From Polyangiaceae bacterium (lineage in GTDB: Bacteria > Myxococcota_A > Polyangia > Polyangiales > Polyangiaceae): a stretch of DNA of 64,000 nucleotides. The notes beneath the pieces are model-generated. The model worked only from the letters and a program-made list of their open reading frames with translations, did no database searches and had not been told where the DNA came from. Positions within the stretch are counted from its first letter, which is position 1. Each line of letters starts with the position of its first letter. This document shows positions 48,177-63,791 of the stretch, one piece after another. The position numbers and the translations under genes are program-made. The stretch is from the NCBI GenBank assembly GCA_033763455.1, contig JANRKO010000043.1, forward strand, positions 133,512 through 197,511, read 5' to 3'.

Positions 48177-48275
48177 ACAAGGAGATTGACCGAGCCCGGG
48201 CTACATTCCCAAACTTTCTCACGAGGCCTAGATTTTTCGCGGTTTATGCGCCTTTCAAGCTCGGCCGGAGAGGGG

Positions 48276-49325
48276 CTAGAGCCGAAATGTCGCGCCTGCC
48301 TGAAATAGGGTGAGCACCCGAGGCTGTTGCCAGAGCGTTGAGCGATCCGTCTTGAAGGTGAGAGGTGCGTAGCTCACGAGCCCAGCGACACCGAGCTTGA
48401 GCGCCCAGCGCTCTGAGACTTCCAGTCGACCACTGGCGCCGAGGCCCGTGGTGGCCATGAACTCGGTCTCCGAATAGTTCTGCGCAAAGCCGGAGCCTTG
48501 GGCCGCAACCACGCCCACATAACTCGGCAAGCAAGCGGCAAAAAAAGAAAACGGAACACACACCTCAGCGTGGCCAAGCCAAGCATTGGCCTGAACCCCT
48601 GTGTTGTTTGGGCGCACGAGCTTTGGGCTAAAAGCGCCGAGTGCGCCCGCGCCTATTTCCAGGCCGGAAGACGCGTAGCGCAACCCCAATGAAGCAGCAT
48701 AGGCAGTTCTTGGAAGCAACGAAGGCGAAACACCGGCGGCAGCTTCAAGCTGCCACGGAAAGACAGAAGCTTGCGGTGGTGGAGCGGGTGCAGGTGCCGG
48801 CCAAAATGTTGGAGCGAAAGCGGGCAGAGGCGCGGGCATGGGGCTCGCGGAGAGCCCGGAACCTACAGCTGGAGAGGGGCCGGGAGCGGGCGTGGCACTT
48901 GGTTGCGCTGGGGGCTCTGAAGCTTCCAGCAGCGGATCCAGCGCTACGCTGATGGCCAAGGCCATGCTTTGAATGAGCTCATTGCAGTCGAAAGAGCTCG
49001 TGCGAAGTTCGCGCACGCCCTCGGTGCGTTCTTCAGTTTGAAGGCTGACCTTGCCAACAAGGCCCCTGGCATTCATTTCCACGTTGGCCAACAAGATGGC
49101 AGCGGCGCTGGGATCAAACGCTTGATAGCCCAGGCGATTCGACACCGCCGCTTCGAGTACACTCTGTGCTGGGCAGTTGTTGGGAACTGTCGGCACCGCG
49201 TACAGGAGGCGTGCAGATACGTGCTGTCGCGGCGTGGGAGCTTCCGGCGTGTTCTCCGCACGGCAAGGCACGCTGACGAGCAATAGGAGAAGGAAAAGGA
49301 GAACCGAACGAAGCACAGCGGGCAT
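48276..49325 (-). CDS. Exported protein with a probable C-terminal beta-barrel, associated with the ECF cassette
   Basis: Signal peptide, CP...L..AV..RLGY, C.EL..SMALAISVALDP, Pro linker, beta-rich C-terminus. Confidence 0.7.
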   Translation of the reverse strand: MPAVLRSVLLFLLLLLVSVPCRAENTPEAPTPRQHVSARLLYAVPTVPNNCPAQSVLEAAVSNRLGYQAFDPSAAAILLANVEMNARGLVGKVSLQTEERTEGVRELRTSSFDCNELIQSMALAISVALDPLLEASEPPAQPSATPAPGPSPAVGSGLSASPMPAPLPAFAPTFWPAPAPAPPPQASVFPWQLEAAAGVSPSLLPRTAYAASLGLRYASSGLEIGAGALGAFSPKLVRPNNTGVQANAWLGHAEVCVPFSFFAACLPSYVGVVAAQGSGFAQNYSETEFMATTGLGASGRLEVSERWALKLGVAGLVSYAPLTFKTDRSTLWQQPRVLTLFQAGATFRL

Positions 49326-49330
49326 CTTAC

Positions 49331-49429
49331 AGCCGCGCGGCGGAGAATGCCTACGCCAGGGTGCCCGGGGATGGCTGGCTCCCAGGTCGCGCTTTTAGGG
49401 GGGGACCCTTCAGGGTTCAATTAGCCGCA
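49331..49429 (+). repeat. Direct repeat copy A (left of higBA)
   Basis: Aligns to 50160-50250; identical 24-bp core CGGCGGAGAATGCCTACGCCAGGG; ends in GGTTCAATTAGCCGCA. Confidence 0.9.
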
Positions 49430-49494
49430 ATCAACAGGAAGTGCTGGAGCGGCGAGGAGTGGCAGCGCGGCAGCGAAATTTGGACTTTTGAGTG

Positions 49495-49531
49495 CATTAC
49501 GCTTGACGTAATGTGTAACACACGCTAGCTT
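49495..49531 (+). promoter_or_regulatory. higBA sigma70 promoter with a palindromic operator
   Basis: TTGACG-17 bp-TAGCTT; CATTACG-N5-CGTAATG palindrome over the -35 element. Confidence 0.75.
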
Positions 49532-49540
49532 AGCGAACGT

Positions 49541-49819
49541 GTGATTCGGTCCTTTCTTGACAAGAAGGCGGCAGCGCTTTGGGAGGGAAAGTCCGTCCCC
49601 GCATTCAGCAGTTTTCGGGCTCAAGCTGAGCGCAAGCTAGCTATCCTTGAAGCGGCAACATCTCTGGACAATCTGGCGGGGCTACCAGGTAACCGGCTGG
49701 AGGCCCTTAAGGGAAATCGCAAGGGGCAGTACTCGATTCGAATCAACGACCAATGGCGCGTTTGCTTCTGCTTTCGAGATGGGGACGCCTACGACGTTGA
49801 AATTGTCGATTACCACTGA
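49541..49819 (+). CDS. higB: HigB (RelE-family) toxin
   Basis: MIRSF, PGNRLEALKG.RKGQYSIRINDQWRVCF, VEIVDYH. Confidence 0.93.
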   Translation: MIRSFLDKKAAALWEGKSVPAFSSFRAQAERKLAILEAATSLDNLAGLPGNRLEALKGNRKGQYSIRINDQWRVCFCFRDGDAYDVEIVDYH

Positions 49820-49831
49820 AGGAAACGTCTT

Positions 49832-50140
49832 ATGATCAAAAATGGAATGCGCCCCGTCTCGCCGGGGGAAGTGCTTCGAGAACAGCTAGACGAACTGGGT
49901 CTTTCTGCAAATGCAGTAGCGGCTGCGCTGCACGTCCCCGCCAATCGGGTCACGGGCATACTCAATGGAACACGGGCGCTCACTCCTGAAACGGCGTTGC
50001 GCCTAGAGCGGTTCTTTACGGGCACTTCTGCGCAGTTCTGGTTGAATTTGCAGAATCAATTCGACCTCCGCCGGGCAGAGCTCAAAAATGGTGTGGCACT
50101 GCGCAAAATTCGCCCATTTTCGGCCTTGAAGGCGAGCTGA
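49832..50140 (+). CDS. higA: HigA antitoxin (HTH)
   Basis: MRPVSPGEVLRE, LSANAVA..L.VPANRV..I.NG.R.LTPETALRL, FWLNLQ. Confidence 0.93.
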   Translation: MIKNGMRPVSPGEVLREQLDELGLSANAVAAALHVPANRVTGILNGTRALTPETALRLERFFTGTSAQFWLNLQNQFDLRRAELKNGVALRKIRPFSALKAS

Positions 50141-50159
50141 GGAAGCGGGCGCGTCACAT

Positions 50160-50250
50160 AGCCGCACGGCGGAGAATGCCTACGCCAGGGGGATGGCTCG
50201 CTACCAGGCCGCGCTTTGGGGGGTAACCCTCCGGGTTTCAATTGGCCGCA
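50160..50250 (+). repeat. Direct repeat copy B (right of higBA)
   Basis: See copy A; shorter than A mainly through one 7-bp gap. Confidence 0.9.
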
Positions 50251-50317
50251 CCCAAAAGTTTCGATTGGCCGTGAGTAAAGGTTTCAATTAGCCGAACCCA
50301 AAGGTTACAATTGGCCG
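50235..50317 (+). repeat. Four 14-bp iterons GTTtCaATTgGCCG at an exact 23-bp period
   Basis: Starts at 50235, 50258, 50281 and 50304; the last copy abuts ATG 50318. Confidence 0.9.
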
Positions 50318-50473
50318 ATGTCGGTGGCCCTTTATCCGCGCTATTCCGAGCCCGGGCTCATAGAGTCCCTCAAGGACTCGCCCTTGGTTCTAGTACATGG
50401 GCCCCGGCAGTGCGGTAAGACAACGCTCGCCCAGAAGGTAGGCAAGCGTCGAGGGTACGAGGTTTCACGCTAG
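50318..50473 (+). pseudogene. Truncated AAA_14/DUF4143 ATPase (N-terminal 51 aa; absent from the ORF track)
   Basis: Hand translation MSVALYPRYSEPGLIESLKDSPLVLVHGPRQCGKTTLAQKVGKRRGYEVSR*, with the same Walker A as the 60771 gene. Confidence 0.85.
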
Positions 50474-50486
50474 CCTCTTGCCAGTA

Positions 50487-52078
50487 CTAGGCCTCAAGCG
50501 CCACGCCAGCGCCACCAGTTTCCGGGACCAACACTGATTCGGAACTGCTCGATTCCAGCAGCAGCGAGTTCAGAACCGGCGTGACTACGTCCCGGAGTAC
50601 TGCCCCTCTAAGCTCACCCCGCGACGCAGCGGACAGAATTCCGTGCGTGCCAAGAATGACTGTACGCGCACTCTCGCCGCTCTCGGCTCGACCTTGCTGG
50701 TTGGCTTCTGCGACCTCAAAGCGCAAAACTTCCCGCAACGAAGCCGTCAGCTCCGCACGCTTGGAAGAGCCCACGTGCTCCAACGCCCACGCCAGAAAAC
50801 GCCACCCGAGCTCTGCGTGCCGAGTCTCATCATCGCTGATCCGGGAGAGAAACTCCCGCACAGCCGGTACCGTTGCCACGCTAGCAGCTTCTGCCGCTTC
50901 AATGGCAGCCACAGTTTCGCCAAAACAGGCCTCTTTCACGGCGGTAACAATGATCTCAAGCGTGCCGGCGTCTTCAAACGCACCCGCCAGCCTAAGCCGC
51001 GAAGGCCCTACGTTGCTTCCGGAATAGCTACTCGCGAGCGCGAAACACGCCATTGCATGTTCAATCTCGTCCCCCATGGCGCGTTGTGCTTCGCTGAGAA
51101 GCCACGCTGGCGCTCCCATCGACATCAAGTGCAGCGAGAAGCGCGCGAACGCCGCAACTGACGCGTGCTCCATGAGCGCAATCTCCGTGTAGTGGGCAGC
51201 AATTTCTCGGCGAGTTCCGGCGTCCAATTTATCCAACGAGCTCACGAATACGGGGGAAGCGAGCCAGCTCGCTGACTCAGTTGGGCTCGCCTGGCGGTGT
51301 GCGTTGTCGACGCAAAATGGGCGCCCTCCTGGGGAAGCTGGCAGGAATAGGGGAAATTCCCTCTCTCGACCCCGCACCCAGACACATCTGGCCTGTAATC
51401 AGTGCCGCCCGCGCACAAGCTGCCATCGGCACAATCAGCATCCGTGCGACACGTGGATGCAACGCAAGTTCCGATATTCCCACCACATTGGCAGATGGAT
51501 CCCGCCCCACAATCTTGATCTGTAACACAGCCGTAGATACACACCGTGCGAGCCGGCGCGGCAGGGCCCAGGGGTGATGCCTCGTGTGCGGGATAAAACT
51601 GGCAATACCCATGGGGCTTCTCCTTGCAGTCAGCATCCTCGGAGCAAGCGAACTGAATTCCTCCCGCACCTCCGCCCCCCGAACTCCCAGCCGCACTACC
51701 TCCCGTAGCCGCCGCTCCCGCAGCACCACCGCCTGCTGCACCGCCACTCGCGTCAGCTGGGATCTGTGATCCCGCACGCGGGTAGATCGACGGACAAGTC
51801 ACCTGCTTGGTTCGATGCGTGTACCCTTCGGCGCAATGCACGTAGCCAGTATCCACCCCCGTTAACGGCGTCGGACTCGTGCAGCTCCACTTCGCATGCC
51901 TCGGCTCCCCGCCCGAGCCGCCCGTCACGCCAACCCCCCCCGAGCCACCCGTCACGCCACGCCCACTTGGGGCCGGTGACGTTTCCACCGAGGTGGTAGC
52001 GCCCCCGCAGCCCAACGGTGCTGTCCCAAGCGCTGCCAGAAAGAGCGTGTGCCAAGAACCAAGTCGAGTTCGAATCAT
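50487..52078 (-). pseudogene. Cys-rich lipoprotein + ferritin-like domain, split by a frameshift or deletion near 51325-51335
   Basis: ORF 51242-52078 carries the lipobox and Cys repeats; ORF 50487-51377 carries GRPF, MEHASVAAFARF, DEIEHA, EACFGET and DETRHA but has no convincing start. Confidence 0.75.
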
Positions 52079-52090
52079 GGGTGCCGCACC

Positions 52091-52106
52091 AGCAAGCCCT
52101 GTGCCA
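52091..52106 (-). promoter_or_regulatory. Putative sigma54 promoter
   Basis: Minus strand TGGCACAGGGCTTGCT, near-perfect consensus, 12 bp before ATG 52078. Confidence 0.75.
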
Positions 52107-52244
52107 CGATACTACTTCGTCAATACTAGCGAGGACCTGAGGATCGTCTGATACCTCAGGCGTGACTCGCGCTCCGCACATGGCACATATGGCACCAGCC
52201 CAACTCCGCCGTCAGTACCAGATCCAAGGCCCGACCAGCAGCTG

Positions 52245-52269
52245 ATGCAGGGCAGGCTTTGCCCTGTAT
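52245..52269. terminator. Hairpin
   Basis: ATGCAGGGCA-ggctt-TGCCCTGTAT; no U tract. Confidence 0.3.
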
Positions 52270-52378
52270 GTGGCAGGATCGTCAAATGCCTCGCCGAATG
52301 TTGCGAGCAAGGACTGCATCAGGGCTGTGTCTTCAGAGGTAAGGTGGCGAATCGTGAGCGGCATAACGTCCTCAGCTC

Positions 52379-53074
52379 TTACATTCCACAGTTCTTCACG
52401 TGCACCAGAACGCCGAGCGCATTGCAGTTGGTAGTCATCGGGTCTCCTTCATCATGGATGGAGGGACAATTGATTTCAGCGAACATTTCGCCTGCACCAA
52501 TCCGAAGCTTTTCGGACGCTCCTGGCATGGGGAGGGTGCGAGCCGTACAGGGCTCAATATTGGTCTGAGTTCCCGATGCCTCCGACGAGAAGACCGCGTC
52601 GCGCGAGGCAATGGTGCCCGTACCATTTGTAACCGTCCCGCTAAGGAACACTGAACTACCTGCGGCGCCAGCAGTTACCGAAAATGCATAAGATGGATCG
52701 GTGCCTGTGATGGTGCAATTCACGACGGCACCGTCGACTCCATTCCTAAGCGGCACCCCCTCCGTTTGGGTGTTTGACGGCGCCGGGTTGCCAAAATTGG
52801 AAAGGCCTTGACGAAGGCAGGCCTTTCCCGGGATCGCCGCGATGTATGCCCGAACGCCCGCCTCCGCCGGAGCTTGGCCTCCACCCCCAGTACCGAGGGT
52901 CCCTTTGCCACCGGTCCCCTGCGGTAGCACACCAACCATGGCGCTGCCGCCAGCGGCCGGGGCGCCGGAACTAGATGTTCCAGAGCTAACGCCACCGCAG
53001 CCAGAGCTCGAAACAAGCCCGAACATAAAAACTAGACCGATCGAACCCCGAAGCACTTCTGAAAACCGAGCCAT
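52379..53074 (-). CDS. Hypothetical lipoprotein
   Basis: GGAGG RBS, SSGC lipobox, Gly linker, beta-rich domain ending in NC. Confidence 0.7.
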   Translation of the reverse strand: MARFSEVLRGSIGLVFMFGLVSSSGCGGVSSGTSSSGAPAAGGSAMVGVLPQGTGGKGTLGTGGGGQAPAEAGVRAYIAAIPGKACLRQGLSNFGNPAPSNTQTEGVPLRNGVDGAVVNCTITGTDPSYAFSVTAGAAGSSVFLSGTVTNGTGTIASRDAVFSSEASGTQTNIEPCTARTLPMPGASEKLRIGAGEMFAEINCPSIHDEGDPMTTNCNALGVLVHVKNCGM

Positions 53075-53203
53075 TCTAATACCTCCCATAGAGACGGAGT
53101 CTCATAGATGGCGTCGAACCCGAATGAAAGGGGTTCTGTGCGCCCCCGCCACGGCTGATCGTAATTGTCTGGACACTGGTGCGTCGAGGAGCTGAATGAC
53201 AGG

Positions 53204-53626
53204 TTACTGTGACTTCATTGGCTCAAGTGGGGCCGACACGGGAGCGGGCACACTCGGCTTCACGCAGTACCCGCCCACGTAGCTAAGATCGGTGCCGCCC
53301 AAGTCAACAATCACATCCCGACGGCACTCAAACCCCGCTCGACAGCGACAGAATGGCGCTTCTGATTCCGGGCCGTCGCAGCGGCAAGAACAATAGACTT
53401 GCGCTTCGAAGCCCAGGCAAACGCCGAGCCCACAGCTGCTTGGGTTTTCTTCCACGTTTCTGGTGGTGAAGTCGAAGGGGCCGCCTTCTAAAGTGCAAGA
53501 TAAGCCCACTTTTTCGGCAAGCTTCAGGGATTGCGCGTCAAAGAGCTCGGCCTCACCCGAGCAATTGGCCAAAAATAGGAGGGCGAGAGAGCCAAGCATT
53601 TGAGGGTTTCGGAATTGGGTCTTCAT
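53204..53626 (-). CDS. Small Cys-rich lipoprotein
   Basis: LANC lipobox; VYCSCRCDGP...FCRC..GFEC...GGYCVK. Confidence 0.7.
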   Translation of the reverse strand: MKTQFRNPQMLGSLALLFLANCSGEAELFDAQSLKLAEKVGLSCTLEGGPFDFTTRNVEENPSSCGLGVCLGFEAQVYCSCRCDGPESEAPFCRCRAGFECRRDVIVDLGGTDLSYVGGYCVKPSVPAPVSAPLEPMKSQ

Positions 53627-53634
53627 GCGCACAC

Positions 53635-53734
53635 TGGGCCCCGGCGCCGCAAAGTGGCTCACGCGGCCTCTCCCATCAACGAAATAGATCTCTGGTGTCT
53701 TTTGTGTGAGCCGTCCCAAGCCCTTCGGGGCCCA
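53635..53734. promoter_or_regulatory. Divergent pair of GTGAGCC-N13/14-GGGGCCCA motifs (candidate ECF promoters)
   Basis: Minus copy at 53635-53662 and plus copy at 53706-53734, each pointing at its downstream gene. Confidence 0.45.
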
Positions 53735-53769
53735 ATACGCTGACCGTCCTTCGCCTTCTAGCTCGGCCC

Positions 53770-54408
53770 TTGCCCTCAATGTTCGCCGCTCAGTCCTTGA
53801 AGCCCGCCATAGCCCAAGTTGTGCCCCTGCGGCACGCGGAAGGGCAGCCTACGGTCGCGCAATTGGTGGAGGCAGGGCTGCACGGGGATCCCTTCGCACT
53901 CCGAGAGCTCTATGATCGCCACGCCAAAGCGGTGTTGGCGCGAGCCCTGCGTTTGCTCGGCCGCTCAGCGGACGCAGAGGATGTAACTCAAGAAGCCTTC
54001 CTGGAAGCCTTTCGAGACCTCAAGCAACTGCAGGCACCTGAGCGATTCGGAGCCTTCCTCATGGGCATTCTCACGCACCGCATCTATCGCCGCTTTCGAC
54101 GCCAGCGGTTACTTTCGCGTTTGGGCTTCCTAGAAAAGGGGGAGAGAGATGCAAGCCTAGAGAAGCTCGGAGCGGGGGCGGGCCAAGAAACCTTGCTGCA
54201 ACTCAGCCGCGCCGACACCGTGCTCCGAACCATAGCACCTGAGCTGCGCCTAGCTTGGATGTTACGCATGGTGGAAGGGTGTGAGCTGGCAGAAGTGGCG
54301 GCTCTTGGGCATTGTTCTTTAGCCACAGCTAAACGGCGAGTAGCTCGTGCTCATGAGCGCGTACGCGCCGTGCTTGACATGGATTTGCCAGCAGGAGATC
54401 CAGCATGA
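53770..54408 (+). CDS. ECF sigma-70 factor
   Basis: GDPFALRELYDRH, AEDVTQEAF, LRMVEG.EL.EVA...CSLATAKRR. Confidence 0.88.
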   Translation: MPSMFAAQSLKPAIAQVVPLRHAEGQPTVAQLVEAGLHGDPFALRELYDRHAKAVLARALRLLGRSADAEDVTQEAFLEAFRDLKQLQAPERFGAFLMGILTHRIYRRFRRQRLLSRLGFLEKGERDASLEKLGAGAGQETLLQLSRADTVLRTIAPELRLAWMLRMVEGCELAEVAALGHCSLATAKRRVARAHERVRAVLDMDLPAGDPA

Positions 54409-55568
54409 AAAACGCCAAAAGGTTAGCCTTTCCGCTCAATAGCCAGCTCGTAGATCCGGCGACTGACGCCGCTGTGAGGCGGGTGAAGCTTCGAGTATTT
54501 TCCGCACTTGGGGCTGCGCCGACGCCAACGGTCTGGTCGTGGGGGCGGGTTGGGTTCGCCTTTTCTGGGGCTCTGCTCGTAGCAGCGCTCGCCGTGGTGG
54601 GTTTCCAATATTTTGGGGTTCGCTCGACCTCAAGTACGATGCTTCCCGGGCCACTCCTCACGCGCTCTGGCTCTGCCTTTGAAGCGCTGAGCACAAGCCC
54701 ACACAGCGTGGCGCATACTGATTTTTCGGATGGCTCTCGGATTGAGCTGGCACCTGCCGGCAAGGTGAGCGCTCTGTCATCTACGGCGCAAGAATTTTCG
54801 GTGCTCCTTGAGCAGGGTGAATTGCACGTGCACGTGGTTCCGGGGGGCCCGAGGCGTTGGGTCGTCGAAGCAAAGCTGGCGCGCATTGAAGTGGTGGGTA
54901 CAGATTTCAGCGTTCAGCGTTCCGCAAACAGCGTTCGAGTATCAGTGGGGCACGGCGTAGTTCTGGTTCGCTCGGCATGGCTGGAACAAGGCGTACAGCG
55001 GCTCACAGCAGGTCAACAACTAGAGGTATCGCCCGCAACCTCCGGTGCGGCCGAGAGTTCTCCCCATGGTGCAAAGTCGCCGATTCGCCCCATCGGGCAT
55101 GCTGCGCCGAAGACGATACAACCCCTTGAGCACGCTGCCGCAGAGTTGCCGTTGGTACCCCGGCACCGAACATCTCCGCCATCCGTCAACGAACTATTTG
55201 CTGCGGTGGATCGAGCCCGTTTGGCTGGCAACCGGGCGGAAGCAGAGGCTGCGCTTCAGCAAATTCTAAGCCAATTTCCCAATGACGCGAGAGCCCCTGT
55301 GGCACGCTACACGTTGGGGTTGGTGCGGCTCAGCGCCGGGGGCGACCGGCGACGTGCAGTCGCTGAATTTGAGCTCGTCCTTGAGAGTGGAGCATCGAGC
55401 AGCCTGCGGGAGGACGCGTTCGCCAAGCTCGTGGAGGTGCACGCAGCTGCGGGAGAAGCGAGCGAGGCGAGATCGCTTCTTCTCAGGTATCAGGATGAGT
55501 TTCCCCAAGGCAGGCACTTGGCAAGGCTTCGGGCAAAATTGAGAGCCACTCGTACGAAGTCACCGTGA
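54405..55568 (+). CDS. FecR-domain anti-sigma with C-terminal TPR
   Basis: TM helix, FSDGSRIEL, LEQG...V, IEVVGTDFSV, VSV.HG.V.V; FP.GRH tail; ATGA overlap with the sigma gene. Confidence 0.85.
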   Translation: MKNAKRLAFPLNSQLVDPATDAAVRRVKLRVFSALGAAPTPTVWSWGRVGFAFSGALLVAALAVVGFQYFGVRSTSSTMLPGPLLTRSGSAFEALSTSPHSVAHTDFSDGSRIELAPAGKVSALSSTAQEFSVLLEQGELHVHVVPGGPRRWVVEAKLARIEVVGTDFSVQRSANSVRVSVGHGVVLVRSAWLEQGVQRLTAGQQLEVSPATSGAAESSPHGAKSPIRPIGHAAPKTIQPLEHAAAELPLVPRHRTSPPSVNELFAAVDRARLAGNRAEAEAALQQILSQFPNDARAPVARYTLGLVRLSAGGDRRRAVAEFELVLESGASSSLREDAFAKLVEVHAAAGEASEARSLLLRYQDEFPQGRHLARLRAKLRATRTKSP

Positions 55569-56674
55569 TGGTAGACACCACTCACGCCGAGGCCACAGTG
55601 AAGCTAACCACTCACGCCAGACGCGCGGTGAAGATTTTACTGCCCGCTCATTGCCGGCGGTGTTTGGCTACCGTAAATTCACGCGTCGTACGCTGTGCAG
55701 TATTCGTTTGGCTCTTTCTACTCCCCTTACACATCGAAGCATCCGAAAAGAGCAACGTTGCGCTTCGTGTTCAGCCTGCCGGTTGCACCGAACTTCCTTA
55801 CGACCCAAGCGCCCTTCAATATGCTTTGGAAATCGAACTTCGCGCGACCAATGTGCTCGCCGCATTAGCCCACGGCAGCCCGGACATTTCGCTCACTCTT
55901 CCCAATTGCTCGGTCGATGAAACTCACCTAGCAGTGGATATTACGTTGCCCCCTGGAGCCGCTGTAGCCCACTTGCGCGCGGACTTGAGCCTGGCCGACA
56001 TGGCTCAGGAAACCCGCGAGCGAACCCTGGCCGTCGCCATCGTTGAGTTTCTCAATGGAGCGGTGCCAACAGGTGCCTCCCAGGCCGAAGACAGAGCAAG
56101 CGCACCCAAAGCATCACCCACGAGGGGATTGAGCGAAAGAAGTTCACCCTCGGCCCTGGGCCGCAAACAAATCCTCATCGCTTCCTACGAAGCGTACGTA
56201 AGCTCCCAAGAATTCCACGCAGCAAACCGCTTTCTGGGCGGCGGCTTGGCGCTTCAGATTGCGCACATACCGAGCGGGCGTGCGCTTCGTTTGAGCGCCG
56301 ACGGGGAAACGGGGGCGACCGAAACGCCTTGGGGCACCGTGAACGTGAGAACGCTCGGTATGGGCCTTTACGCGACACAACAGTTCTCCAAAGAACCGCG
56401 CCTCACGCTCGGACCTGGAGTTCGCCTCGTCGCAGCTCAAGCCGAAGCTGATACCCGTGGTGGAGGCAAAGGCCAGGTGCGCTACGTATTCGCGAGCGCG
56501 GTGGGAGCTTTGGTTGGGCTTGCGGCTCCCCTTTGGGGAGCCTTCCGGCTAAAGACCACGTTTGAGCTCAGCTATTTTGTGCGAGAGGGCACTTTCCTAG
56601 CTGGAGGTCGGCCAGTGGTTGGCTTTTCGGGGATTCACACGGCTGGCACACTTGGAATAGCTTATGGGGAGTGA
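55565..56674 (+). CDS. Exported protein with a probable beta-barrel, third gene of the ECF cassette
   Basis: GTGA overlap with the upstream gene; LEIEL...RTLAVAIVE; beta-rich C-terminus. Confidence 0.6.
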   Translation: MMVDTTHAEATVKLTTHARRAVKILLPAHCRRCLATVNSRVVRCAVFVWLFLLPLHIEASEKSNVALRVQPAGCTELPYDPSALQYALEIELRATNVLAALAHGSPDISLTLPNCSVDETHLAVDITLPPGAAVAHLRADLSLADMAQETRERTLAVAIVEFLNGAVPTGASQAEDRASAPKASPTRGLSERSSPSALGRKQILIASYEAYVSSQEFHAANRFLGGGLALQIAHIPSGRALRLSADGETGATETPWGTVNVRTLGMGLYATQQFSKEPRLTLGPGVRLVAAQAEADTRGGGKGQVRYVFASAVGALVGLAAPLWGAFRLKTTFELSYFVREGTFLAGGRPVVGFSGIHTAGTLGIAYGE

Positions 56675-56981
56675 ACGGCGTGCCCTTCTCGGTGCTGCCA
56701 AGGTGCCGTGCCTCCTCTGTGCTTACGGTACATTGCGGCATCAGCTAAACGGCAAAACCACGAACAAGACGGCGGCAAGACGCGCCATCCTTCGGGGGAA
56801 GCAGATTTGTCTCGCTTACCCCTTCTGGGACCAAAACATGCACCGCGCGCCTGGCAAATGGTCAAGCCTGCACCGTCAACCCCGAATGCCTATCGGAGGA
56901 TTGCACGAATGGGCTGTCCGCGCCGAACGCCGACTTTGGGCTCGCGCTCTTGTGCGGAACAGCTGCAAAACAGCTTGTGCG

Positions 56982-57268
56982 TTAGTCGACTCTGACTGGC
57001 TCCCGATCCACGATCGCCAACAATGTCACGTTGGCACTGTCGAAGCCGTAGAACACCCAAAGGCTGAAGCCCGGGACGGCTCTCACCCAAGCAACCCCAA
57101 CGGGCAGCATGAGCGCCTCGAAGTCCTCGGAGCCAGGTAGCTCGCCTCGCTGAAGCGAGCTCACCTCACCAGCCGACCGATTGCGGCTGCCTTAGCTTTT
57201 TGGGGTCGAATTTGCAGCGCTTGAAAGCTGCGGAAGTAGCCTCGACCTACTCGGAGTATCCGCCCCAC
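56982..57268 (-). pseudogene. RelE/ParE-like small toxin disrupted by a 5-bp tandem duplication
   Basis: TCACC x2 at 57161-57170. Removing one copy gives a 93-aa ORF, MGRILRVGRGYFRSFQ...WVRAVPGFSLWVFYGFDSANVTLLAIV. Confidence 0.6.
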
Positions 57269-57432
57269 GGGTCGCCTTCGCCTGTCTGGAGATACCGCAA
57301 GTGCGCCTCAGCAACCCATTCGGGTAGCGGCTCATCGACCCGGACCAGATCGTCGCTCGAAAGGATCCCTTCTGGCAGGCGGTACCTTGGGCGCTCGCTC
57401 GGGGCAGGCTGGCTGCGGGCAGGCTCGGACAT
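57247..57432 (-). CDS. Small acidic protein, putative antitoxin
   Basis: 61 aa, overlapping the start of the toxin-like gene. Confidence 0.55.
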   Translation of the reverse strand: MSEPARSQPAPSERPRYRLPEGILSSDDLVRVDEPLPEWVAEAHLRYLQTGEGDPWGGYSE

Positions 57433-57608
57433 CCCGGCACTGTAGCGCGTTGCATTTTTGAACGCCAGGGACGGGTGATTGGGGCGAGGGGCACCCGTTT
57501 GGCATGGACGCAACGCCAGGTTTCAGCGGGTTAGGTTGTGACCTGATCACACCCTCGGCCACGCGTGGGGGCGTGGGGCTAGTGGGACGCTGTTCGGATA
57601 TGAATTTA

Positions 57609-57672
57609 CGACTTTTTTTGCCCTAGAGCTAAATTTGTCACGACAATTTTCTCCCTTAGGCTAAATTTGTCG
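57609..57672 (+). repeat. Two 32-bp imperfect tandem repeats with a central inverted repeat, abutting the ATG
   Basis: GCTAAATTTGTC at 57628 and 57660; CGAC at 57609 and 57641; AAATTTGTC-ac-GACAATTTT. Confidence 0.8.
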
Positions 57673-57673
57673 G

Positions 57674-58846
57674 ATGCTCCCCCGAACGCTCGAGGCCCTA
57701 ATCTCCGACGATCTCAAGGAGAAAATGGTGTTTCTTTCAGGACCTCGGCAGGTCGGGAAGACCACAGTGGCCCGCGCCGTGCTCGCCAAGGCCGTCGCTG
57801 GAGCGTACTACAGCTGGGACAGCCGAGAGGACCGGAAATCGATCCTGGGCGGAGTGCGCCCGCCGCCACCAGCACTTATCGTCCTGGATGAGCTCCACAA
57901 GTTTCGATCTTGGAAGCGGTGGCTGAAGGGGGAGTTCGACAAGCATCGCACCGAGTATGAATTCCTGGTCACAGGGAGTGCTCGGCTCGATGTGTACCGC
58001 AAAGGTGGCGATTCGCTTCAGGGCCGCTACCACTATCGCCGGCTCCATCCGTTGTCGATGATGGAGCTCGGCGGGCAGCTCCCTCAGCGCCTCCCGTTCG
58101 AACCGCTTACATTCGGCAGCTACGATTCAGGTTCAGAGGAGCTGCTTCATCAGCTGCTGGAGCGAGGAGGGTTTCCGGAGCCGTTTTTTGCGTCTACGGC
58201 GCGAGCGCAGCGGCGTTGGCACAAGGAACGCCTGGAGCGTTTTTTCCGAGAAGACGTGCGCGAGTTGGAACTGGTGAGGGACCTTTCATCCATGGAGATG
58301 CTGGCTGAAATTCTTCCCTCGCGCGTAGGAAGCCCACTTTCTTTGAACGCGCTGCGTGAAGACCTTGAGGTGACGCACGGAGCCGTGAATCACTGGGTTG
58401 ATATCCTCGAACGCATGTACTTCCTGTTCAGGATCCCCCCGTTTGTTGCCCGCACCGTGCGCAGCCTAAAAAAGGAGCCCAAAGCGTATCTTTGGGATTG
58501 GTCCCTCGTAACTGACCCGGGAGCGCGGTTCGAGAACTTGGTTGCGTCTCACTTGCTCAAGCTGTGTCACCACCTAGAAGATCACGAGGGCTATCGCGCC
58601 AAACTCCACTACTTGAGAGACCGTGATGGGCGCGAAGTGGACTTCCTTGTTGCTGTAGATAAAAAGCCCTGGTTCATGGTCGAGGCTAAGCTCGACGATC
58701 AGGCTCCGAGCCGACACCTGCACTACTTTCGCGAGCGCTTGAACGTACCTCTCGCCTATCAGTTCATTGCTAGCCCGGGTCACTCATTCATAAAGAACGG
58801 CGTGCATGTGGTATCCGCGAGCACCGCGCTCAAAGAGATAGCCTAG
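57674..58846 (+). CDS. AAA_14 ATPase + DUF4143 (wHTH, PD-(D/E)XK) protein
   Basis: GPRQVGKTT, LDELHK, VTGSAR, SLQGR, GGFPEP, KKEPKAY, FEN, EVDF...VEAK. Confidence 0.9.
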   Translation: MLPRTLEALISDDLKEKMVFLSGPRQVGKTTVARAVLAKAVAGAYYSWDSREDRKSILGGVRPPPPALIVLDELHKFRSWKRWLKGEFDKHRTEYEFLVTGSARLDVYRKGGDSLQGRYHYRRLHPLSMMELGGQLPQRLPFEPLTFGSYDSGSEELLHQLLERGGFPEPFFASTARAQRRWHKERLERFFREDVRELELVRDLSSMEMLAEILPSRVGSPLSLNALREDLEVTHGAVNHWVDILERMYFLFRIPPFVARTVRSLKKEPKAYLWDWSLVTDPGARFENLVASHLLKLCHHLEDHEGYRAKLHYLRDRDGREVDFLVAVDKKPWFMVEAKLDDQAPSRHLHYFRERLNVPLAYQFIASPGHSFIKNGVHVVSASTALKEIA

Positions 58847-59496
58847 GACAAAATTCGAGTGGATCCAAAATTGCAACCATCGGACTCCTCGGCTTCCGCG
58901 ACGAGACGTGGCAGCGTCTCTCGTGCGCGCGCAAGCCATTGATTAAGACTTTCGGCATCCTCGGGGATCGCACTCAACGCCACACCCTGTGCAATTTGAA
59001 CCATAGCTTTGGTGTTTTGAAACCCTCGAACTCGCGTTTGGCTTTGGGCGGCAGTTTTGCTGAATTTCTCTGTTCGGAATTCTCCCAACATTGCGAGAAC
59101 CCAAGCCTCCAACACGGGAACTGCGGTCCCACCGATGATGGCAACCTCTGGGTACATCTGTTCCGCCTTGGCGGTCGCAGCTTCAATGATCCGCACTCGT
59201 TCCGCGCTATCGTCGGCATCGCGAACAAACGCCAGAACGCGAGCTTGTGCACGTTTCGCGTCAAGGGCCAGCGCGAGGACATTTCGTTCGTCTGCGGGAG
59301 CAGGAGGCTTCACCCGCAGCTTTACAAGCTTGCACCAAGTCTTTGCGCCAAGCACCACCCACCCAGTTTCCTGGACCCTTCTCAACAGTGCTTCGATGAG
59401 GCCTATTTCTTTAGAGTCGTCATAGGGCGCCGCCAGCGCGCGGCCTCCGAGTTCATTCCGCCCCTCACCCCCGAGGTACACGCCAACTTCACTCAT
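58843..59496 (-). CDS. TOPRIM-like protein (DUF4276/DUF4435-like partner of an ABC ATPase)
   Basis: VYLGGEGRNE and FVRDADD (E and DxD motifs), VLEAWVL; overlaps the ATPase stop. Confidence 0.6.
   Translation of the reverse strand: MSEVGVYLGGEGRNELGGRALAAPYDDSKEIGLIEALLRRVQETGWVVLGAKTWCKLVKLRVKPPAPADERNVLALALDAKRAQARVLAFVRDADDSAERVRIIEAATAKAEQMYPEVAIIGGTAVPVLEAWVLAMLGEFRTEKFSKTAAQSQTRVRGFQNTKAMVQIAQGVALSAIPEDAESLNQWLARARETLPRLVAEAEESDGCNFGSTRILS
58846..58872 (+). repeat. 27-bp direct repeat, copy 1
   Basis: GGACAAAATTCGAGTGGATCCAAAATT, identical to 60706-60732. Confidence 0.95.
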
Positions 59497-60565
59497 GCGT
59501 GCTCTTTCCGGTCAGAAGAGCCTTCTCTTCCGCGCCATCACAATAACTCACCCAAAACTCCCCAGGCTGGTAGACCTTCATCGCATCATCAAAGCCCGGG
59601 ACATCTTTAAGCAAAACGGCCTGGGTTCCCGAATCAGCACCCCGAGTGATAACGCTCACTTCCGGACCCTGCAGCTCATTGACCACAAGGGGGCTATGAG
59701 TTGCAATGATAACCTGCGTGCGCTCAGATAGCTCCCGAAGAATTTTCACTACTTCGGCGATTCTGGCGGGGTGCAAACCATTCTCGGGTTCTTCGACGAG
59801 CAGCAGCGTGGTGCGCTCAAGATGCTGGATTGCGGCATAGCCCAAGAAGTACAGGAGACCCTCGCTCATCGCATCAGCCGGTACGATAGTGCCGTTCGTT
59901 AGCTCTACTTCCAAGGCTACGGCGTTATTTTCGACGGTCGGAACTCGGAGTGTTCTCACCGTTGGAAAAAGTGTTCTGACTCGATCGCGTAGGGCGACGA
60001 AGCCATCCACATCACGGGTATTGATAGCCTGGTAAACGCTCGCGAGCCCTTTTCCCCGCTCATCGAAGAAGCGCACAGGCTCCTGTGAAAGGATTTGCGG
60101 TGCAGGCTCCCTCAATGCATTCGGATCTAGCCGGAGCATCGTCGCGGTCGTCAATCGACTCGCAAGCGTCTGGACGGAGGGCAATTCGGATGGTTTCGAA
60201 AGAAGGCCTGGGACACTCGACGCCCGTGCATTTGTATCGGTAAGAACCCGCCGCTCATGCTCCCATACTGATTCCCAGATCCCACCTCGGCCGCGGCTCT
60301 CCAACATGTACGCAAGCTCGTCCCTATAATGCAGCGCTATCTGCTGGCCATCGTCCTCGAGACCCATCATCGTCTTGAACGGGTTTGCCGTATCCCAAAA
60401 TCTCCCCGCTGCAAACTGTGCCGCCGTTCTCATTGCGCGGAGAATGGTGCTCTTCCCGCTATCGTTTGGGCCAATCAGCGCGTGAATCGGGCTGAGGCTC
60501 ACTGAGACGTTGCGGGCACAGCCGTAACGCTGGATGTCCACTCGTTGGATGTAGTCGTCGTTCAT
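59489..60565 (-). CDS. ABC-type (AAA_15/AAA_21) ATPase
   Basis: GPNDSGKST, MSEG signature, LLVEEPENGLHP, IATHSP. Confidence 0.9.
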   Translation of the reverse strand: MNDDYIQRVDIQRYGCARNVSVSLSPIHALIGPNDSGKSTILRAMRTAAQFAAGRFWDTANPFKTMMGLEDDGQQIALHYRDELAYMLESRGRGGIWESVWEHERRVLTDTNARASSVPGLLSKPSELPSVQTLASRLTTATMLRLDPNALREPAPQILSQEPVRFFDERGKGLASVYQAINTRDVDGFVALRDRVRTLFPTVRTLRVPTVENNAVALEVELTNGTIVPADAMSEGLLYFLGYAAIQHLERTTLLLVEEPENGLHPARIAEVVKILRELSERTQVIIATHSPLVVNELQGPEVSVITRGADSGTQAVLLKDVPGFDDAMKVYQPGEFWVSYCDGAEEKALLTGKSTHE

Positions 60566-60705
60566 GGAGAGGTCTCCGCTTTTTGGGCCCGGCTAGACGA
60601 GCGAAAATGCAACGGGTGCAAGGATGCGGTCAAGCCGCCAAAACCGCAACGCTGTGGGCTGCCAGTCGCCGCCGCTCGTCGCGTTAGAGGGACTCAGTTT
60701 GGATT

Positions 60706-60747
60706 GGACAAAATTCGAGTGGATCCAAAATTAGACTGGACAAAATT
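60706..60747 (+). repeat. 27-bp direct repeat copy 2, within an array of CAAAATT units upstream of the AAA_14 gene
   Basis: CAAAATT at 60709, 60726 and 60741; GGACAAAATT at 60706 and 60738 (32 bp apart). Confidence 0.9.
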
Positions 60748-60770
60748 AGGATTAGACCTAGATTTGACCT

Positions 60771-61943
60771 GTGCTAGCTCGCCGCCTTGAAGCGCATTTG
60801 GACCAGGATCTAACCAAGAAAATGGTGATCCTTTCGGGTCCACGGCAGTGCGGGAAAACCACCCTTGCGAGGGAACGGGTTCGCTCTCTTGGCGGGGCGT
60901 ATTACAGCTGGGACAAGCACGCTGACAGGCTCACCATCCAGAATCGGGATCTCGATCACGGCGCCAAGCTTTGGGCGTTTGATGAGCTTCACAAATACCG
61001 GAAGTGGCGAGCACTTCTGAAGGAGCTTGCTGATACCGAGGGGCAGAGGCCAATCCTTGTCACGGGTAGCGCGAAGCTCGAGCTCTACGGGCGTGGTGGG
61101 GATTCACTACAAGGCCGATACTTCCCGCACCACCTTCATCCGCTAACCTACGGCGAAGTCTACGGGGTCCCGTTTGCCGAGCTGGATCAGCTTGCGCTAC
61201 TGCCCAACGCTCCACCTGATGTTGATATGTTGCCGCTTCTGGAGCTAGGGGGCTTTCCCGAGCCGCTGCTTTCAGGATCGGCGAGAAGCGCTGCTCGCTG
61301 GCGTCTTGCCTATGCGGAGCGCGTTGTGCGTGAAGAAGTCACGTCTTTGGAGCAAGTGCGGGACATTGATCGCATGGAGCTCCTCTACGATCGTTTGGCC
61401 GATCTTGCCGGGGGAGTGCTCTCGATCAACGCCTTGCGGGAGGATCTGGAAGTGGCGTTCGATACTGTTCAAAGCTGGGTCGGTATCCTCGAACGGCTCG
61501 ACACTATCTTTCGCATTTCGCCCTTTGGCCCCCCGCGGATCAAGAGCATCAAGAAGGAGCAGAAAGTCTATCATTGGGATTGGGCGCGCTGTACAACGCC
61601 AGGGGCACGCCTTGAGAACATGGTGGCGCTCCACCTTCTGCGGGCCGTAGATTGGGCCAAGGATATCGAGGGCAAGAAGCTTCAGCTCCGCTACTTCAGG
61701 ACGCGAACTGGGCACGAAGTGGACTTCATTTTGCTCCGTGGCAATAAGCCCTGGATCGCCATTGAAGTGAAGACCTCCGAAAATGATTTGTCGCCCAGCC
61801 TGCGCTACTTCTCTGAACGCTTGAAACCGACGCTTGCGCTCCAGGTGGTGTTAAACGGAGCGCGAGAGCGACGCCTCGAGAACATAGGCGCAACAGAAGT
61901 GCGGGTCGCCTCGGTGGCGCGCCTCCTGGCTAATCTTCCGTGA
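60771..61943 (+). CDS. AAA_14 ATPase + DUF4143 protein (paralog of 57674)
   Basis: GPRQCGKTT, FDELHK, GGDSLQGRY, GGFPEP, KKEQKVY, EVDF...IEVK. Confidence 0.9.
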   Translation: MLARRLEAHLDQDLTKKMVILSGPRQCGKTTLARERVRSLGGAYYSWDKHADRLTIQNRDLDHGAKLWAFDELHKYRKWRALLKELADTEGQRPILVTGSAKLELYGRGGDSLQGRYFPHHLHPLTYGEVYGVPFAELDQLALLPNAPPDVDMLPLLELGGFPEPLLSGSARSAARWRLAYAERVVREEVTSLEQVRDIDRMELLYDRLADLAGGVLSINALREDLEVAFDTVQSWVGILERLDTIFRISPFGPPRIKSIKKEQKVYHWDWARCTTPGARLENMVALHLLRAVDWAKDIEGKKLQLRYFRTRTGHEVDFILLRGNKPWIAIEVKTSENDLSPSLRYFSERLKPTLALQVVLNGARERRLENIGATEVRVASVARLLANLP

Positions 61944-62079
61944 GTGGGCGGGAAGCGTGGGTGGGGCCGCGAAGTACAGCGAAGTGCGTGGGAGGCACGA
62001 AGGTTGGGCGTGGGGTGCTGGGGAGGCGGGGGTGCGCGACGGGGCGCCGGGGGGGTTCTGGCATGTTGCCTGCCGGGGA

Positions 62080-62110
62080 TTCCGTTAAATTTACTGTAAA
62101 TATGACGGAA
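62080..62110. promoter_or_regulatory. 31-bp AT-rich imperfect palindrome before the third AAA_14 gene
   Basis: TTCCGTTAAATTTAC-T-GTAAATATGACGGAA, 13 of 15 arm pairs; flanked by GGCATG(C)TTGCCTG direct repeats. Confidence 0.75.
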
Positions 62111-62129
62111 GCGGTGGCATGCTTGCCTG

Positions 62130-63293
62130 GTGTTTCCGCGCCTCCTTGCCCCCGCAGCCTCTAGTTTTTTCCTCTTTGGCCCCCGTGGAACGGGGAAGTC
62201 AACGTGGCTTGCGGAGCACTTTGGCTCCAGCCCCTTGCAGGTAAACCTCCTCAAGTCGTCGGAGTTTCTTGCTTATCAGCGAAATCCATCCCTGCTGAGG
62301 GAGCAAGCAATGGCTTTGCCCAAAGGGGCGTGGGTGACCATTGATGAGGTTCAAAAGCTGCCCGCCTTGCTGGAGGAGGTGCACGCACTGCTGTTCGATC
62401 GGGGCAACGACATCGCTTTCGCACTGAGTGGTTCAAGCGCGCGCAAGCTTAAGCGCGTGCAAGCGAACTTGCTCGCGGGGCGGGCGCTTACGCGCAAAAT
62501 GTTCGTGCTCAGTTGTCTGGAGGTAGGGAAACCCTTCCACCTTCCACAAGCCTTGAGCTTCGGCATGTTGCCAGCGGTTCAGAATGAAGCCACCGACCAA
62601 GCGCGCTCCGAGCGGCTGGACGCGTATGTGGAGACCTACTTAAAAGAAGAGATTCAACAAGAGGCCTTGGTGCGCAACCTGGATTCATTTTTTCGCTTCG
62701 TACAAGTTGCTTCCGTGATGAGTGGGCAGATCCTCAATATCAGTGGTGTGGCACGAGACGTGGGCGTGTCTCGCTCAACAGTGCAAGGTTATTTCGATAT
62801 TCTCATTGATACGTTGATAGGTTGGTACCTTCCGTCCTTTCGCTTAAAGGCGAAAATCAAAGAAATTGCCCACCCGAAATTCTACTTTTTCGACAATGGT
62901 GTCCAACGCGCATTGCTGGGTGAACATAGAAACAAGCCCTCGGCTGCGGACAGCGGGCAATTGTTTGAAGCGTACGTCATGAACGAGATTCGCTTGTTAA
63001 CCGCTTCGCTGAGAATTGGCGCTGAAATGGCCTATTGGCGCACCGAGGCCGGAACCGAGGTGGATCTAATCTGGCATCGAGGGCGGCGTTGCATCGGGTT
63101 CGAGATCAAACACAAGGACCTTTGGGATAAGCGCAACAATGCAGGCTTGGAGACCCTCCTCGCGGAAGGCAAGATTGAACGGGCCTTTGGCATTTACACA
63201 GGCACTCGGCGCCTGCGCCAAGGCAACGTCACTGTGCTTCCGTACACTCACGCTCTCCAGGCAATTCATAGTGGTGAAATAGGGTTTGGCTGA
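62130..63293 (+). CDS. AAA_14 ATPase + DUF4143 protein (more distant subfamily)
   Basis: GPRGTGKST, IDEVQK, SGSSARKL, NLLAGRA, YLKEEI, HPKFYFFD, EVDL...FEIK. Confidence 0.9.
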   Translation: MFPRLLAPAASSFFLFGPRGTGKSTWLAEHFGSSPLQVNLLKSSEFLAYQRNPSLLREQAMALPKGAWVTIDEVQKLPALLEEVHALLFDRGNDIAFALSGSSARKLKRVQANLLAGRALTRKMFVLSCLEVGKPFHLPQALSFGMLPAVQNEATDQARSERLDAYVETYLKEEIQQEALVRNLDSFFRFVQVASVMSGQILNISGVARDVGVSRSTVQGYFDILIDTLIGWYLPSFRLKAKIKEIAHPKFYFFDNGVQRALLGEHRNKPSAADSGQLFEAYVMNEIRLLTASLRIGAEMAYWRTEAGTEVDLIWHRGRRCIGFEIKHKDLWDKRNNAGLETLLAEGKIERAFGIYTGTRRLRQGNVTVLPYTHALQAIHSGEIGFG

Positions 63294-63388
63294 ATGATCG
63301 GACATGCGGCCAAGCGGACTCATCCGCGGCGCGCAAAGACTCAGAATCCCACTAAGAAGTCTAGCCAGCGCCATGACTTCTTAGTGTA

Positions 63389-63791
63389 GTGGCCGCCATC
63401 ATAGAGGCCATCGGCTTCGTGCAAAAACACGCCTGGCGCGGAGCCGAGATCGGTGCTGTGCGGCGCCAAGACCGTTTCAGCTTACCTCCTATTGCGGTAC
63501 GTGAATCTATCATCAACGTCGTAGTTCATGCAGACTACGCCCAAAAAGGTGCTTACCTTGGCGGCGGTGCGAGCGGGCAAGGTTCGTGTTGACCCCGTCA
63601 ATCAGCTCATCCTGGAAGCTCTGGGGCTTCGTAAAGAGGGGTGCTCAACCCAGGAGCTTGCCACAACTATCAAGCTAACACCTCGAGCGACTCGCACGCG
63701 TTTAGTGAAACTAATTGCAGATGGCCTCGTATTGGAGATCGGCTCTGGGCCGCAGGATCCTAAGCGGCGTTACTTTCTTGCCCAGCTTTAG
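63389..63791 (+). pseudogene. Remnant of an AlbA_2/RecG-C (HATPase_c_4) + wHTH regulator; N-terminus and middle deleted
   Basis: PPIAVRESIINVVVHADY fragment, then a frame change near 63550 into the wHTH tail STQELA..I.LTPRATRTRL..L...GLV...GPQDPKRRY. Confidence 0.75.

Follow-up and report, generated by a model that had tools for sequence, protein, structure and literature searches.

In one paper (PMC12988326), PDC-S01, an ATPase fused to a PD-(D/E)xK domain, is given as the fourth most common defence candidate of prokaryotes and as unvalidated, and another (PMC3424549) places DUF4143 in the PD-(D/E)xK superfamily with unknown function. One PDC-S01 was tested in E. coli against T7, T5 and T4 and did not belong to the four candidates that gave protection, whereas HEC-01 did (bioRxiv 10.1101/2024.09.26.614923); an anti-phage role of PDC-S01 is treated here as a candidate function. 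A literature search on DUF4143, COG1373, PDC-S01, PF13635 and PF13173, with supplements outside its scope, found no description of an operator, a promoter or a 32-bp period. Described here is a stretch of 64,000 nt from a Polyangiaceae bacterium (assembly GCA_033763455.1, contig JANRKO010000043.1, positions 133,512 to 197,511; referred to as the window), which holds four genes of this family, D1 to D4, each with repeats of its own directly upstream, and two groups of other genes, a HigBA-like toxin-antitoxin pair and an ATPase with a partner gene, that lie between copies of such upstream DNA. The favoured reading, to which a probability of about 0.62 is given, is that the repeats are private promoter-operator modules, probably bound by the product of the gene that they precede, in a swap-prone island, and that the two cargos are ordinary insertions.

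Autoregulated repressors, as a general class, have operators that overlap their own promoters. The modules resemble these in their dyad sites over the -35 and -10 boxes, in a second site three turns upstream and in a DNA-binding domain encoded by the regulated gene; the putative regulator here is instead an AAA+ ATPase-nuclease of 390 aa, and its gene is apparently leaderless. Archaeal Orc1/Cdc6 proteins bind repeats beside their own gene, and both these and ATPase_2-type proteins (2qby, 2v1u, 2qen, 2fna) have the same order of AAA+ domain, lid and winged helix as the proteins described here, which differ from them in sequence (14-17% identity), in an extra C-terminal nuclease domain, in the lack of an origin context and in their 26 copies per genome. 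With Campbell-type insertion-duplication and defence-island swapping the locus has in common cargo between direct copies of resident DNA, empty alleles and no recombinase, and, as at defence-island hotspots, the same flanks can hold different genes (contig C74, below); the difference is that the duplicated DNA is the operator of a neighbouring gene and that such duplicates are modestly enriched at the DUF4143 family. Integron cassette capture likewise involves a promoter-proximal site where unrelated genes accumulate, but here neither an integrase nor attC-like conserved cassette ends were found, and the cassettes do not share an orientation.

D2 (57674-58846, plus strand), D3 (60771-61943, plus) and D4 (62130-63293, plus) share with PDC-S01 the combination of AAA_14 (PF13173) and DUF4143 (PF13635; COG1373). 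Both domains score above the gathering thresholds (59.9-75.7 bits at a cut-off of 27 and 82.5-94.8 bits at a cut-off of 28.1, respectively), and the PADLOC PDC-S01 models match D2-D4 at E values of 9.5e-55, 1.9e-52 and 2e-49. D2 was annotated as AAA+ ATPase, winged helix and PD-(D/E)xK nuclease from Pfam, PADLOC and a structure model; D3 is a paralog 45% identical to D2, and D4 a paralog of another clade, 22% identical to D2 (Pfam and PADLOC for both). D1 (50318-50473, plus) is an AAA_14 remnant of 51 aa (PF13173, E 3e-5, 24.3 bits, below the gathering score), which ends just beyond the Walker A motif and whose Walker A DNA is 72-78% identical to that of D2 and D3. The initial annotation had reported that all four genes adjoin a repeat, and all four genes and every repeat named there are present. 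Four 23-nt iterons of the GGTTTCAATTGGCCG type (50234-50317, plus) lead up to D1, the last one holding TACAAT and abutting the ATG. The putative promoter-operator of D2 is made of two 32-nt units (57608-57671, plus) and ends 2 nt before the gene, that of D3 (60706-60769, plus) comprises unit 1 (60706-60737) and unit 2 (60738-60769) and ends 1 nt before the gene, and a palindrome with arms TTCCGTTAAATTTAC and GTAAATATGACGGAA (15+15 nt; 62080-62110, plus) stands 19 nt before D4. The motifs had also been called different from one another; each is indeed private to its gene, and D2 and D3 nevertheless have a GACAA..TT core in common.

To the genes of the window were added the other family members of the genome (26 DUF4143 loci found by tblastn, 24 of them full-length with usable upstream DNA), and the repeat score was that of the highest-scoring ungapped repeat, inverted or direct, between positions -130 and +20. 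An AT-rich repeat with a score of at least 10 was present in 11 of the 24 paralogs and in 7 of 600 sampled genes with non-coding upstream DNA (Fisher p 5e-13; homologs are mutually related, so p-values in this work overstate independence). In 80 loci from species-representative genomes of many phyla, 31 of 81 DUF4143 genes scored at least 12, as did 7 of 330 neighbouring ORFs (open reading frames). Enrichment of repeats upstream of homologs, as the initial annotation expected, is thus seen in both sets, and repeats are a family-wide feature, judged on the 24 own-genome paralogs and 161 homologs from many phyla.

The spacing of the repeats is narrowly defined. Direct repeats scoring at least 8 were found in 42 of the 81 genes and were spaced exactly 32 nt apart in 31 of these. 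When the 32 nt at about -66 were compared with the next 32 nt downstream at an identity threshold of 0.6, unit-to-unit identity of at least 0.6 was reached in 30/105 genes at a spacing of 32, in one gene at 30 and in none at 26, 28, 31, 33, 34, 36 or 38; among unit pairs from different genes it was reached in 10/3000, so that the units are both periodic and private. The period was found again in an independent set of 80 metagenome loci (15/80 at a spacing of 32; none at 30, 31, 33 or 34).

The units coincide with promoter-like sequence. Side by side, many homolog units are palindromic, of the type TTGACTATTTT...AAAATAGTC; the left arm contains TTGAC as a -35 box, and the right arm is A/T-rich, -10-like and ends a few bases before the start codon (for example TTGACTATTTTGGA...TCCAAAATAG). 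Throughout a large clade, a pair of palindromic 32-bp units, with the -35 and -10 boxes inside, runs up to the start codon, and D4-type genes have one longer palindrome in place of the 32-nt pair. The sole sigma-70-like site in 57400-62300 (TGGACA, 16 nt, TAGATT; 60737-60764) lies inside unit 2 of D3, 6 nt before the GTG, and by eye unit 2 of D2 has the same layout (ACGACA, 16 nt, TAAATT, 6 nt, ATG). A start-anchored profile of the 81 genes has T/T/G at -35 to -33, an A-rich block at -12 to -7 and no clear ribosome-binding signal.

The repeats travel with the gene between genomes, as a comparison with a same-genus genome (G001) shows. The D2 ortholog there (79% aa identity) lies in a different neighbourhood and has three units, each with the same differences from the window units, and the DNA homology to the window starts at 57609, one base inside unit 1 of D2. 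The D4 palindrome is 90% conserved in G001 (L012, G001:C19 5131-5172, minus strand), where the first codons are all that is left of a D4-like gene. About 380 nt past this remnant, a 27%-identical paralog with AT-rich upstream DNA of its own was noted.

Each AAA_14/DUF4143 gene would accordingly form a compact module in which a private promoter-operator is followed directly by the ORF. For the D2/D3 clade, two roughly palindromic 32-bp units are proposed, of which the proximal one would supply the -35 box with its left arm and the -10 box, up to the start codon, with its right arm; it would be the core promoter of a leaderless mRNA, and the other unit would be a matching site three helical turns upstream. 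Because the -10 arm reaches the start codon, the mRNA is probably leaderless. Most likely, the winged helix of the protein contacts the units and the gene is repressed by its own product; self-binding is the most economical assumption, since no protein other than this product is invariably inherited together with the units. That each protein binds its own repeats had been put forward in the initial annotation; the private, gene-linked and promoter-overlapping nature of the repeats stands, as does the winged helix in the protein model, and binding itself is suggested by these indirectly.

The units could instead be read by something else, as tandem promoters, UP-like elements or sites of a host regulator: they hold -35-like and -10-like boxes, their common GAC core is largely the -35 box, and a 32-nt period would already follow from promoter duplication by itself. 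Such a reader is unlikely, given that the sequences are private to each paralog in one cell and differ among 24 paralogs, that the architecture persists in many phyla, where no neighbouring regulator is conserved, and that the type of site tracks the type of recognition helix at clade level (which is not independent of phylogeny). Recognition helices of the 'ISPKTAK' type go with GGCTATTTTG, and those of the 'AF(E/D)TV' or 'THGAV' type with GACAA..TT. The co-variation of repeat and winged helix that had been expected is therefore present between clades, where it is inseparable from shared ancestry.

The protein itself was modelled for D2 with a pLDDT (predicted local distance difference test) score of 93.4, built on 77 sequences; a sequence search retrieved no solved structure of a family member. 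Residues 1-280 of the model align with archaeal AAA+/winged-helix ATPases (2qen, Z 15.6 over 242 residues; 2fna, Z 14.9) and more weakly with STAND proteins and Orc, and the winged helix is placed at about residues 204-273 by alignment with AAA+/winged-helix proteins. In the C-terminal alpha-beta-beta-beta-alpha-beta part, E287, E321 and D323 are invariant among the 77 sequences and E337 and K339 are at least 90% conserved; within the whole-protein model, these residues sit on helix 282-303 and on strands 321-328 and 331-339, and the PD-(D/E)xK nuclease residues are intact as judged from model and alignment. The top Foldseek matches were archaeal Orc1/Cdc6 bound to origin DNA, and iterons beside an initiator gene are typical of origins, both of which would suit a replication or partition function of the iterons in an integrated element. 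This is very improbable, because there are 26 loci in one genome and no replicon genes nearby, the units overlie the promoter and extend to the start codon, a nuclease domain is part of the protein, and the fold match is a generic AAA+/winged-helix one, with STAND proteins and clamp loaders scoring alike.

Of the two cargos, the first is a HigB-like toxin (49541-49819, plus; PF05015, E 3e-15, 56.8 bits) and an HTH_3 antitoxin, HigA (49832-50140, plus; PF01381, E 1e-8, 35.1 bits), which follow the type II HigBA order of toxin and then HTH antitoxin and lie 12 nt apart; a HigBA-like pair, 76-78% identical, occurs in a different context in another same-genus genome (G002). The pair is flanked by two copies of an element of about 113 nt. 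The left copy (49322-49434, plus) extends from the start codon of the divergent gene 48276-49325 to one 23-nt iteron, and the right copy (50151-50255, plus) is 86-88% identical to it with a 5-nt indel. A terminator-like hairpin (50215-50235) was noted inside the right copy, just ahead of the first iteron; the left copy has a similar G-run and C-run.

The second cargo is encoded on the minus strand between D2 and D3 and consists of an ABC-type AAA_21/AAA_15 ATPase (59489-60565; PF13304, E 9e-32; HEC-01A, 1e-31; AriA, 2e-29; Old, 5e-24) and a 217-aa ORF as its partner (58843-59496), whose native C-terminus is replaced after residue 199. It lies between two identical 27-mers (58846-58872 and 60706-60732, 27/27), copy A (plus strand) having the sequence of unit 1 of the D3 operator, in which copy B is contained, and encoding the foreign last residues of the 217-aa ORF. 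Both duplications are absent elsewhere in the 6.56-Mb genome; the earlier statement that HigBA and the ATPase pair are each bracketed by direct copies is correct, and the brackets are local duplications.

Alleles without the cargos were searched for in Logan contigs of four metagenome runs from three studies, with bases 48000-63400 as query (contigs cited by their run, X1 to X3). In one contig of X1 (727 nt, depth 8.9), 49366 is joined to 50189, so that HigBA and one of the element copies are absent. The ATPase cassette is missing from one contig of X1 and one of X3, which come from different studies; in these, 58845/58847 is connected to 60706/60708, and the 27-mer fits either side. An X2 contig runs from the end of HigA through 24 other letters, which resemble the start of the ~113-nt element, to 57607, the base before unit 1 of D2. 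Since X1 and X2 also have contigs over the cargo itself, separate from the empty ones, both forms coexist, and both cargos are presence/absence polymorphisms. As an observation, the proposed hotspot for gain or loss of cassettes is borne out, empty-site alleles having been found for HigBA (X1) and for the ATPase cassette (X1, X3) with joints exactly at the repeats. Further joints (57834/57911, 58033/61239 and 51119/56802) were weak and were set aside. That the duplications are assembly artefacts, a point also raised at the outset, is hardly credible: the assembly is a draft of 92 contigs and the window ends at a contig end, but no exact repeat run reaches 31 nt, so that a k=31 graph should not be misled, the two copies around HigBA differ at ~12% of positions, and independent X1 and X2 contigs cover the cargo while separate contigs show the empty form.

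According to the favoured reading, HigBA and the ATPase/217-aa pair would be insertions into operator DNA, by illegitimate or Campbell-type recombination or by splitting of a repeat array, and recombination between the repeats on either side could remove cargo again; each event may have been a gain or a loss. For the 27-mer, insertion into a three-unit array would be followed by deletion between units to give the empty form, a route that is plausible because the number of units varies from 2 to 3, the G001 ortholog having three.

The initial annotation had gone further and proposed that cleavage or recombination by the protein makes the site a hotspot. The DUF4143 protein would then bind and nick or cut its own units, and cargo and DUF4143 modules would be exchanged as cassettes at operator repeats without an integrase, in a manner resembling an integron lacking its integrase or CRISPR-like repeat duplication. 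For this, bracketed cargo was sought at 186 genes (24 paralogs and the D1 remnant, 81 genes from the genome loci and 80 metagenome loci) and proved rare, being present in 3/186: at D1 with HigBA, at D3, and at L092, a locus from a metagenome-assembled genome (MAG) of Bdellovibrionales. At L092, copies of promoter DNA of ~105-135 nt (4957-5090 and 5868-5973) flank two small ORFs, in neither of which a Pfam match was found. In L102 (5870-5905, 7158-7193) and L141 (4540-4595, 5754-5810), a second copy of the operator DNA comes right after the DUF4143 stop codon, with unrelated DNA beyond it; either such copies are solo operators, or the bracket encloses the gene itself.

Several observations fit such an exchange: each cargo directly follows the first operator unit, empty alleles at the repeats exist for both, the 27-nt duplicate corresponds to a single operator unit, L092 gives a third bracketed cargo, L102 and L141 have the operator on both sides of the gene, the left edge of unit 1 of D2 coincides with a break in three contexts, the nuclease residues are preserved, and duplicates of operator DNA are enriched ~9- to 46-fold. 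It is nonetheless judged quite improbable. An operator duplicate of any kind occurs at 5/186 genes; the lengths are 27, ~113, ~120, 36 and 55 nt, and the junction lies variously beyond unit 1, 6 nt ahead of the start codon, ahead of the -10 box or beyond the palindrome. Neither conserved ends of a cassette nor a constant junction position, as in integrons, was found, and the ATPase cassette has no defined ends and truncates its own last gene. Splitting of an array followed by deletion would yield the 27-mer without an enzyme. Brackets also occur at unrelated genes, since a direct duplicate of at least 20 nt of upstream DNA within 6 kb was found for 8 of 3722 other genes, one of these being the HigBA bracket seen from the neighbouring gene. 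A comparable case was noted on contig C28 (L111, G000:C28; 5288-5414 and 6385-6511), where 127-nt direct repeats, 97% identical and including the 5' end of an AraC-family gene, flank a GH113 gene; it lies near a DUF4143 paralog, is an AraC/GH113 event unrelated to the operator and was not counted for the family. Rarity, variable geometry, the fragmentary cassette, brackets elsewhere, the lack of a recombinase and the simpler route to the 27-mer leave a dedicated capture machine unsupported, and the part of the claim that made the protein the cause of the hotspot is not supported.

Some results weigh against promoter-operator modules with ordinary insertions. Because 13 of the 24 paralogs score below 10 and a clear 32-nt pair is not seen in about half of the homologs, the repeat architecture is clade-specific or often degenerate; the backgrounds come from a crude ORF caller, and start codons were placed by homology. 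The empty-site joints each come from a single short contig of depth 2.5-8.9, and the cassette joints may hold extra letters between the two sides. Bracketed duplicates are commoner here than elsewhere, in 2/25 as against 7/3721 genes (p 0.0015) or, pooled, in 3/186 (p 0.01), and the left edge of unit 1 of D2 is a breakpoint within a few nt in the window, in G001 and in the X2 contig, which purely random insertion does not predict. Location in an island, AT-rich DNA and deletional trimming to functional edges may explain the excess of duplicates, the D2-edge breakpoint and the adjacency of IS200/RAYT-like ORFs described below.

The end of the ATPase cassette shows how it was cut. The 217-aa ORF is 84% identical to a 207-aa protein, the closest of 46 homologs, up to residue 199 and then diverges; junction DNA and the 27-mer supply its last 18 residues, and 8 native codons are lost. 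The cassette is thus an imprecisely cut, truncated fragment with a chimeric end. A short inverted copy at its left junction (14/16 nt) was too short to rely on.

The native ending of the 217-aa family, RARETLPRLV(E/G)L.L.EPS, persists as a small ORF on contig C74, directly ahead of a Schlafen AlbA_2/HATPase_c_4 gene, and one database protein is a fusion of the family's first 43 residues with that Schlafen-type protein, at 96% identity. The promoter-proximal motif of the cassette, which ends in TTGACC (60627-60663, minus strand), is 34/37 identical to C74 70228-70263 and is kept there at a matching distance, with an unrelated 449-aa ORF, which has no protein similarity to the window cassette, between the motif and the 217-aa ending. 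The cassette ends on C74 (L011, G000 C74:64000-78000; 6229-6264 and 7939-7997) match window positions 60627-60663 and 58899-58931. No repeats were found to flank the C74 cassette, and tblastn of the genome found no DUF4143 gene on this contig. The native home of the cassette looks like the C74 locus, which itself looks like a gene-swap site with fixed flanks.

As to the nature of this cargo, the pair had been labelled ATPase-TOPRIM. The first half of the label holds, with an AAA_21/AAA_15 ATPase recognised by HMM (hidden Markov model), and the ABC-type ATPase component of an OLD/PARIS/HEC-01-type pair is present; for the second half, the 217-aa ORF may be TOPRIM-like, with no HMM match to TOPRIM (DUF4435) at E values up to 10. 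None of the 46 homologs has a Pfam domain for this family, Foldseek gave the 217-aa ORF no match at E 0.001 or better, and fold comparison placed C-terminal regions of OLD (Z 7.5 over 154 aa, and 7.2) level with unrelated alpha/beta folds. Two residues, E11 and D93, do not vary within the family, and Asp95 is kept in at least 90% of its members.

A conserved, private promoter-operator with a 32-bp period predicts the DNA that each protein recognises and so offers a handle on a common defence candidate without a known mechanism, its natural variants allowing winged-helix specificity to be tested. It would also explain the movement of PDC-S01 between phyla as minimal units. The empty and filled alleles are real substrates on which operator DNA can be compared as a tolerated insertion site and as an active recombination site; the latter, if true, would explain tandem arrays, solo operators, operator-edge breakpoints and operator-bracketed cargo together.

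The window makes up the final 64 kb of contig C43 of the draft genome (59% G+C), and housekeeping genes occupy positions 1-48,000. On the strength of its proteins with PSD/PSCyt domains, the analysis assigned the genome to a planctomycete. Synteny to three same-genus genomes (G001-G003, ~70% DNA identity) runs through the gene 48276-49325 and ends at its start codon, so that the D1-D4 locus lies in a variable island; the DNA upstream of the orthologs of this gene in the relatives bears no resemblance to the 113-nt element, and these genomes were rejected as a source of empty sites as too distant, given this identity and the synteny break. The statement that no integrase is visible in the window agrees with a scan of 63 window ORFs, among which no integrase or transposase Pfam family was found.

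Other repeats came up in the same surveys. A repeated 25-mer in L132 is an intergenic hairpin element rather than operator DNA and was discarded. Genes with 33-49 nt direct duplicates of upstream DNA, 0.3-2.1 kb away, were seen on G000 contigs C42 (~19.6-21.9 kb) and C7 (~20.5-22.4 kb). IS200/RAYT-like ORFs lie in L105 (2931-4155) and L080 (4839-5997), from Elusimicrobia and deltaproteobacterial MAGs, between 17-23-nt inverted repeats ending AACGTCCCCT; the inner inverted repeat abuts the DUF4143 operator, and the HUH-type motif was recognised by eye only. Within the island of the window, an X2 contig skips the segment 50151-57607 and an X3 contig skips 51119-56802, and a pair of an ECF (extracytoplasmic function) sigma factor and a FecR/TPR anti-sigma-like protein is encoded at 53770-55568, between D1 and D2.

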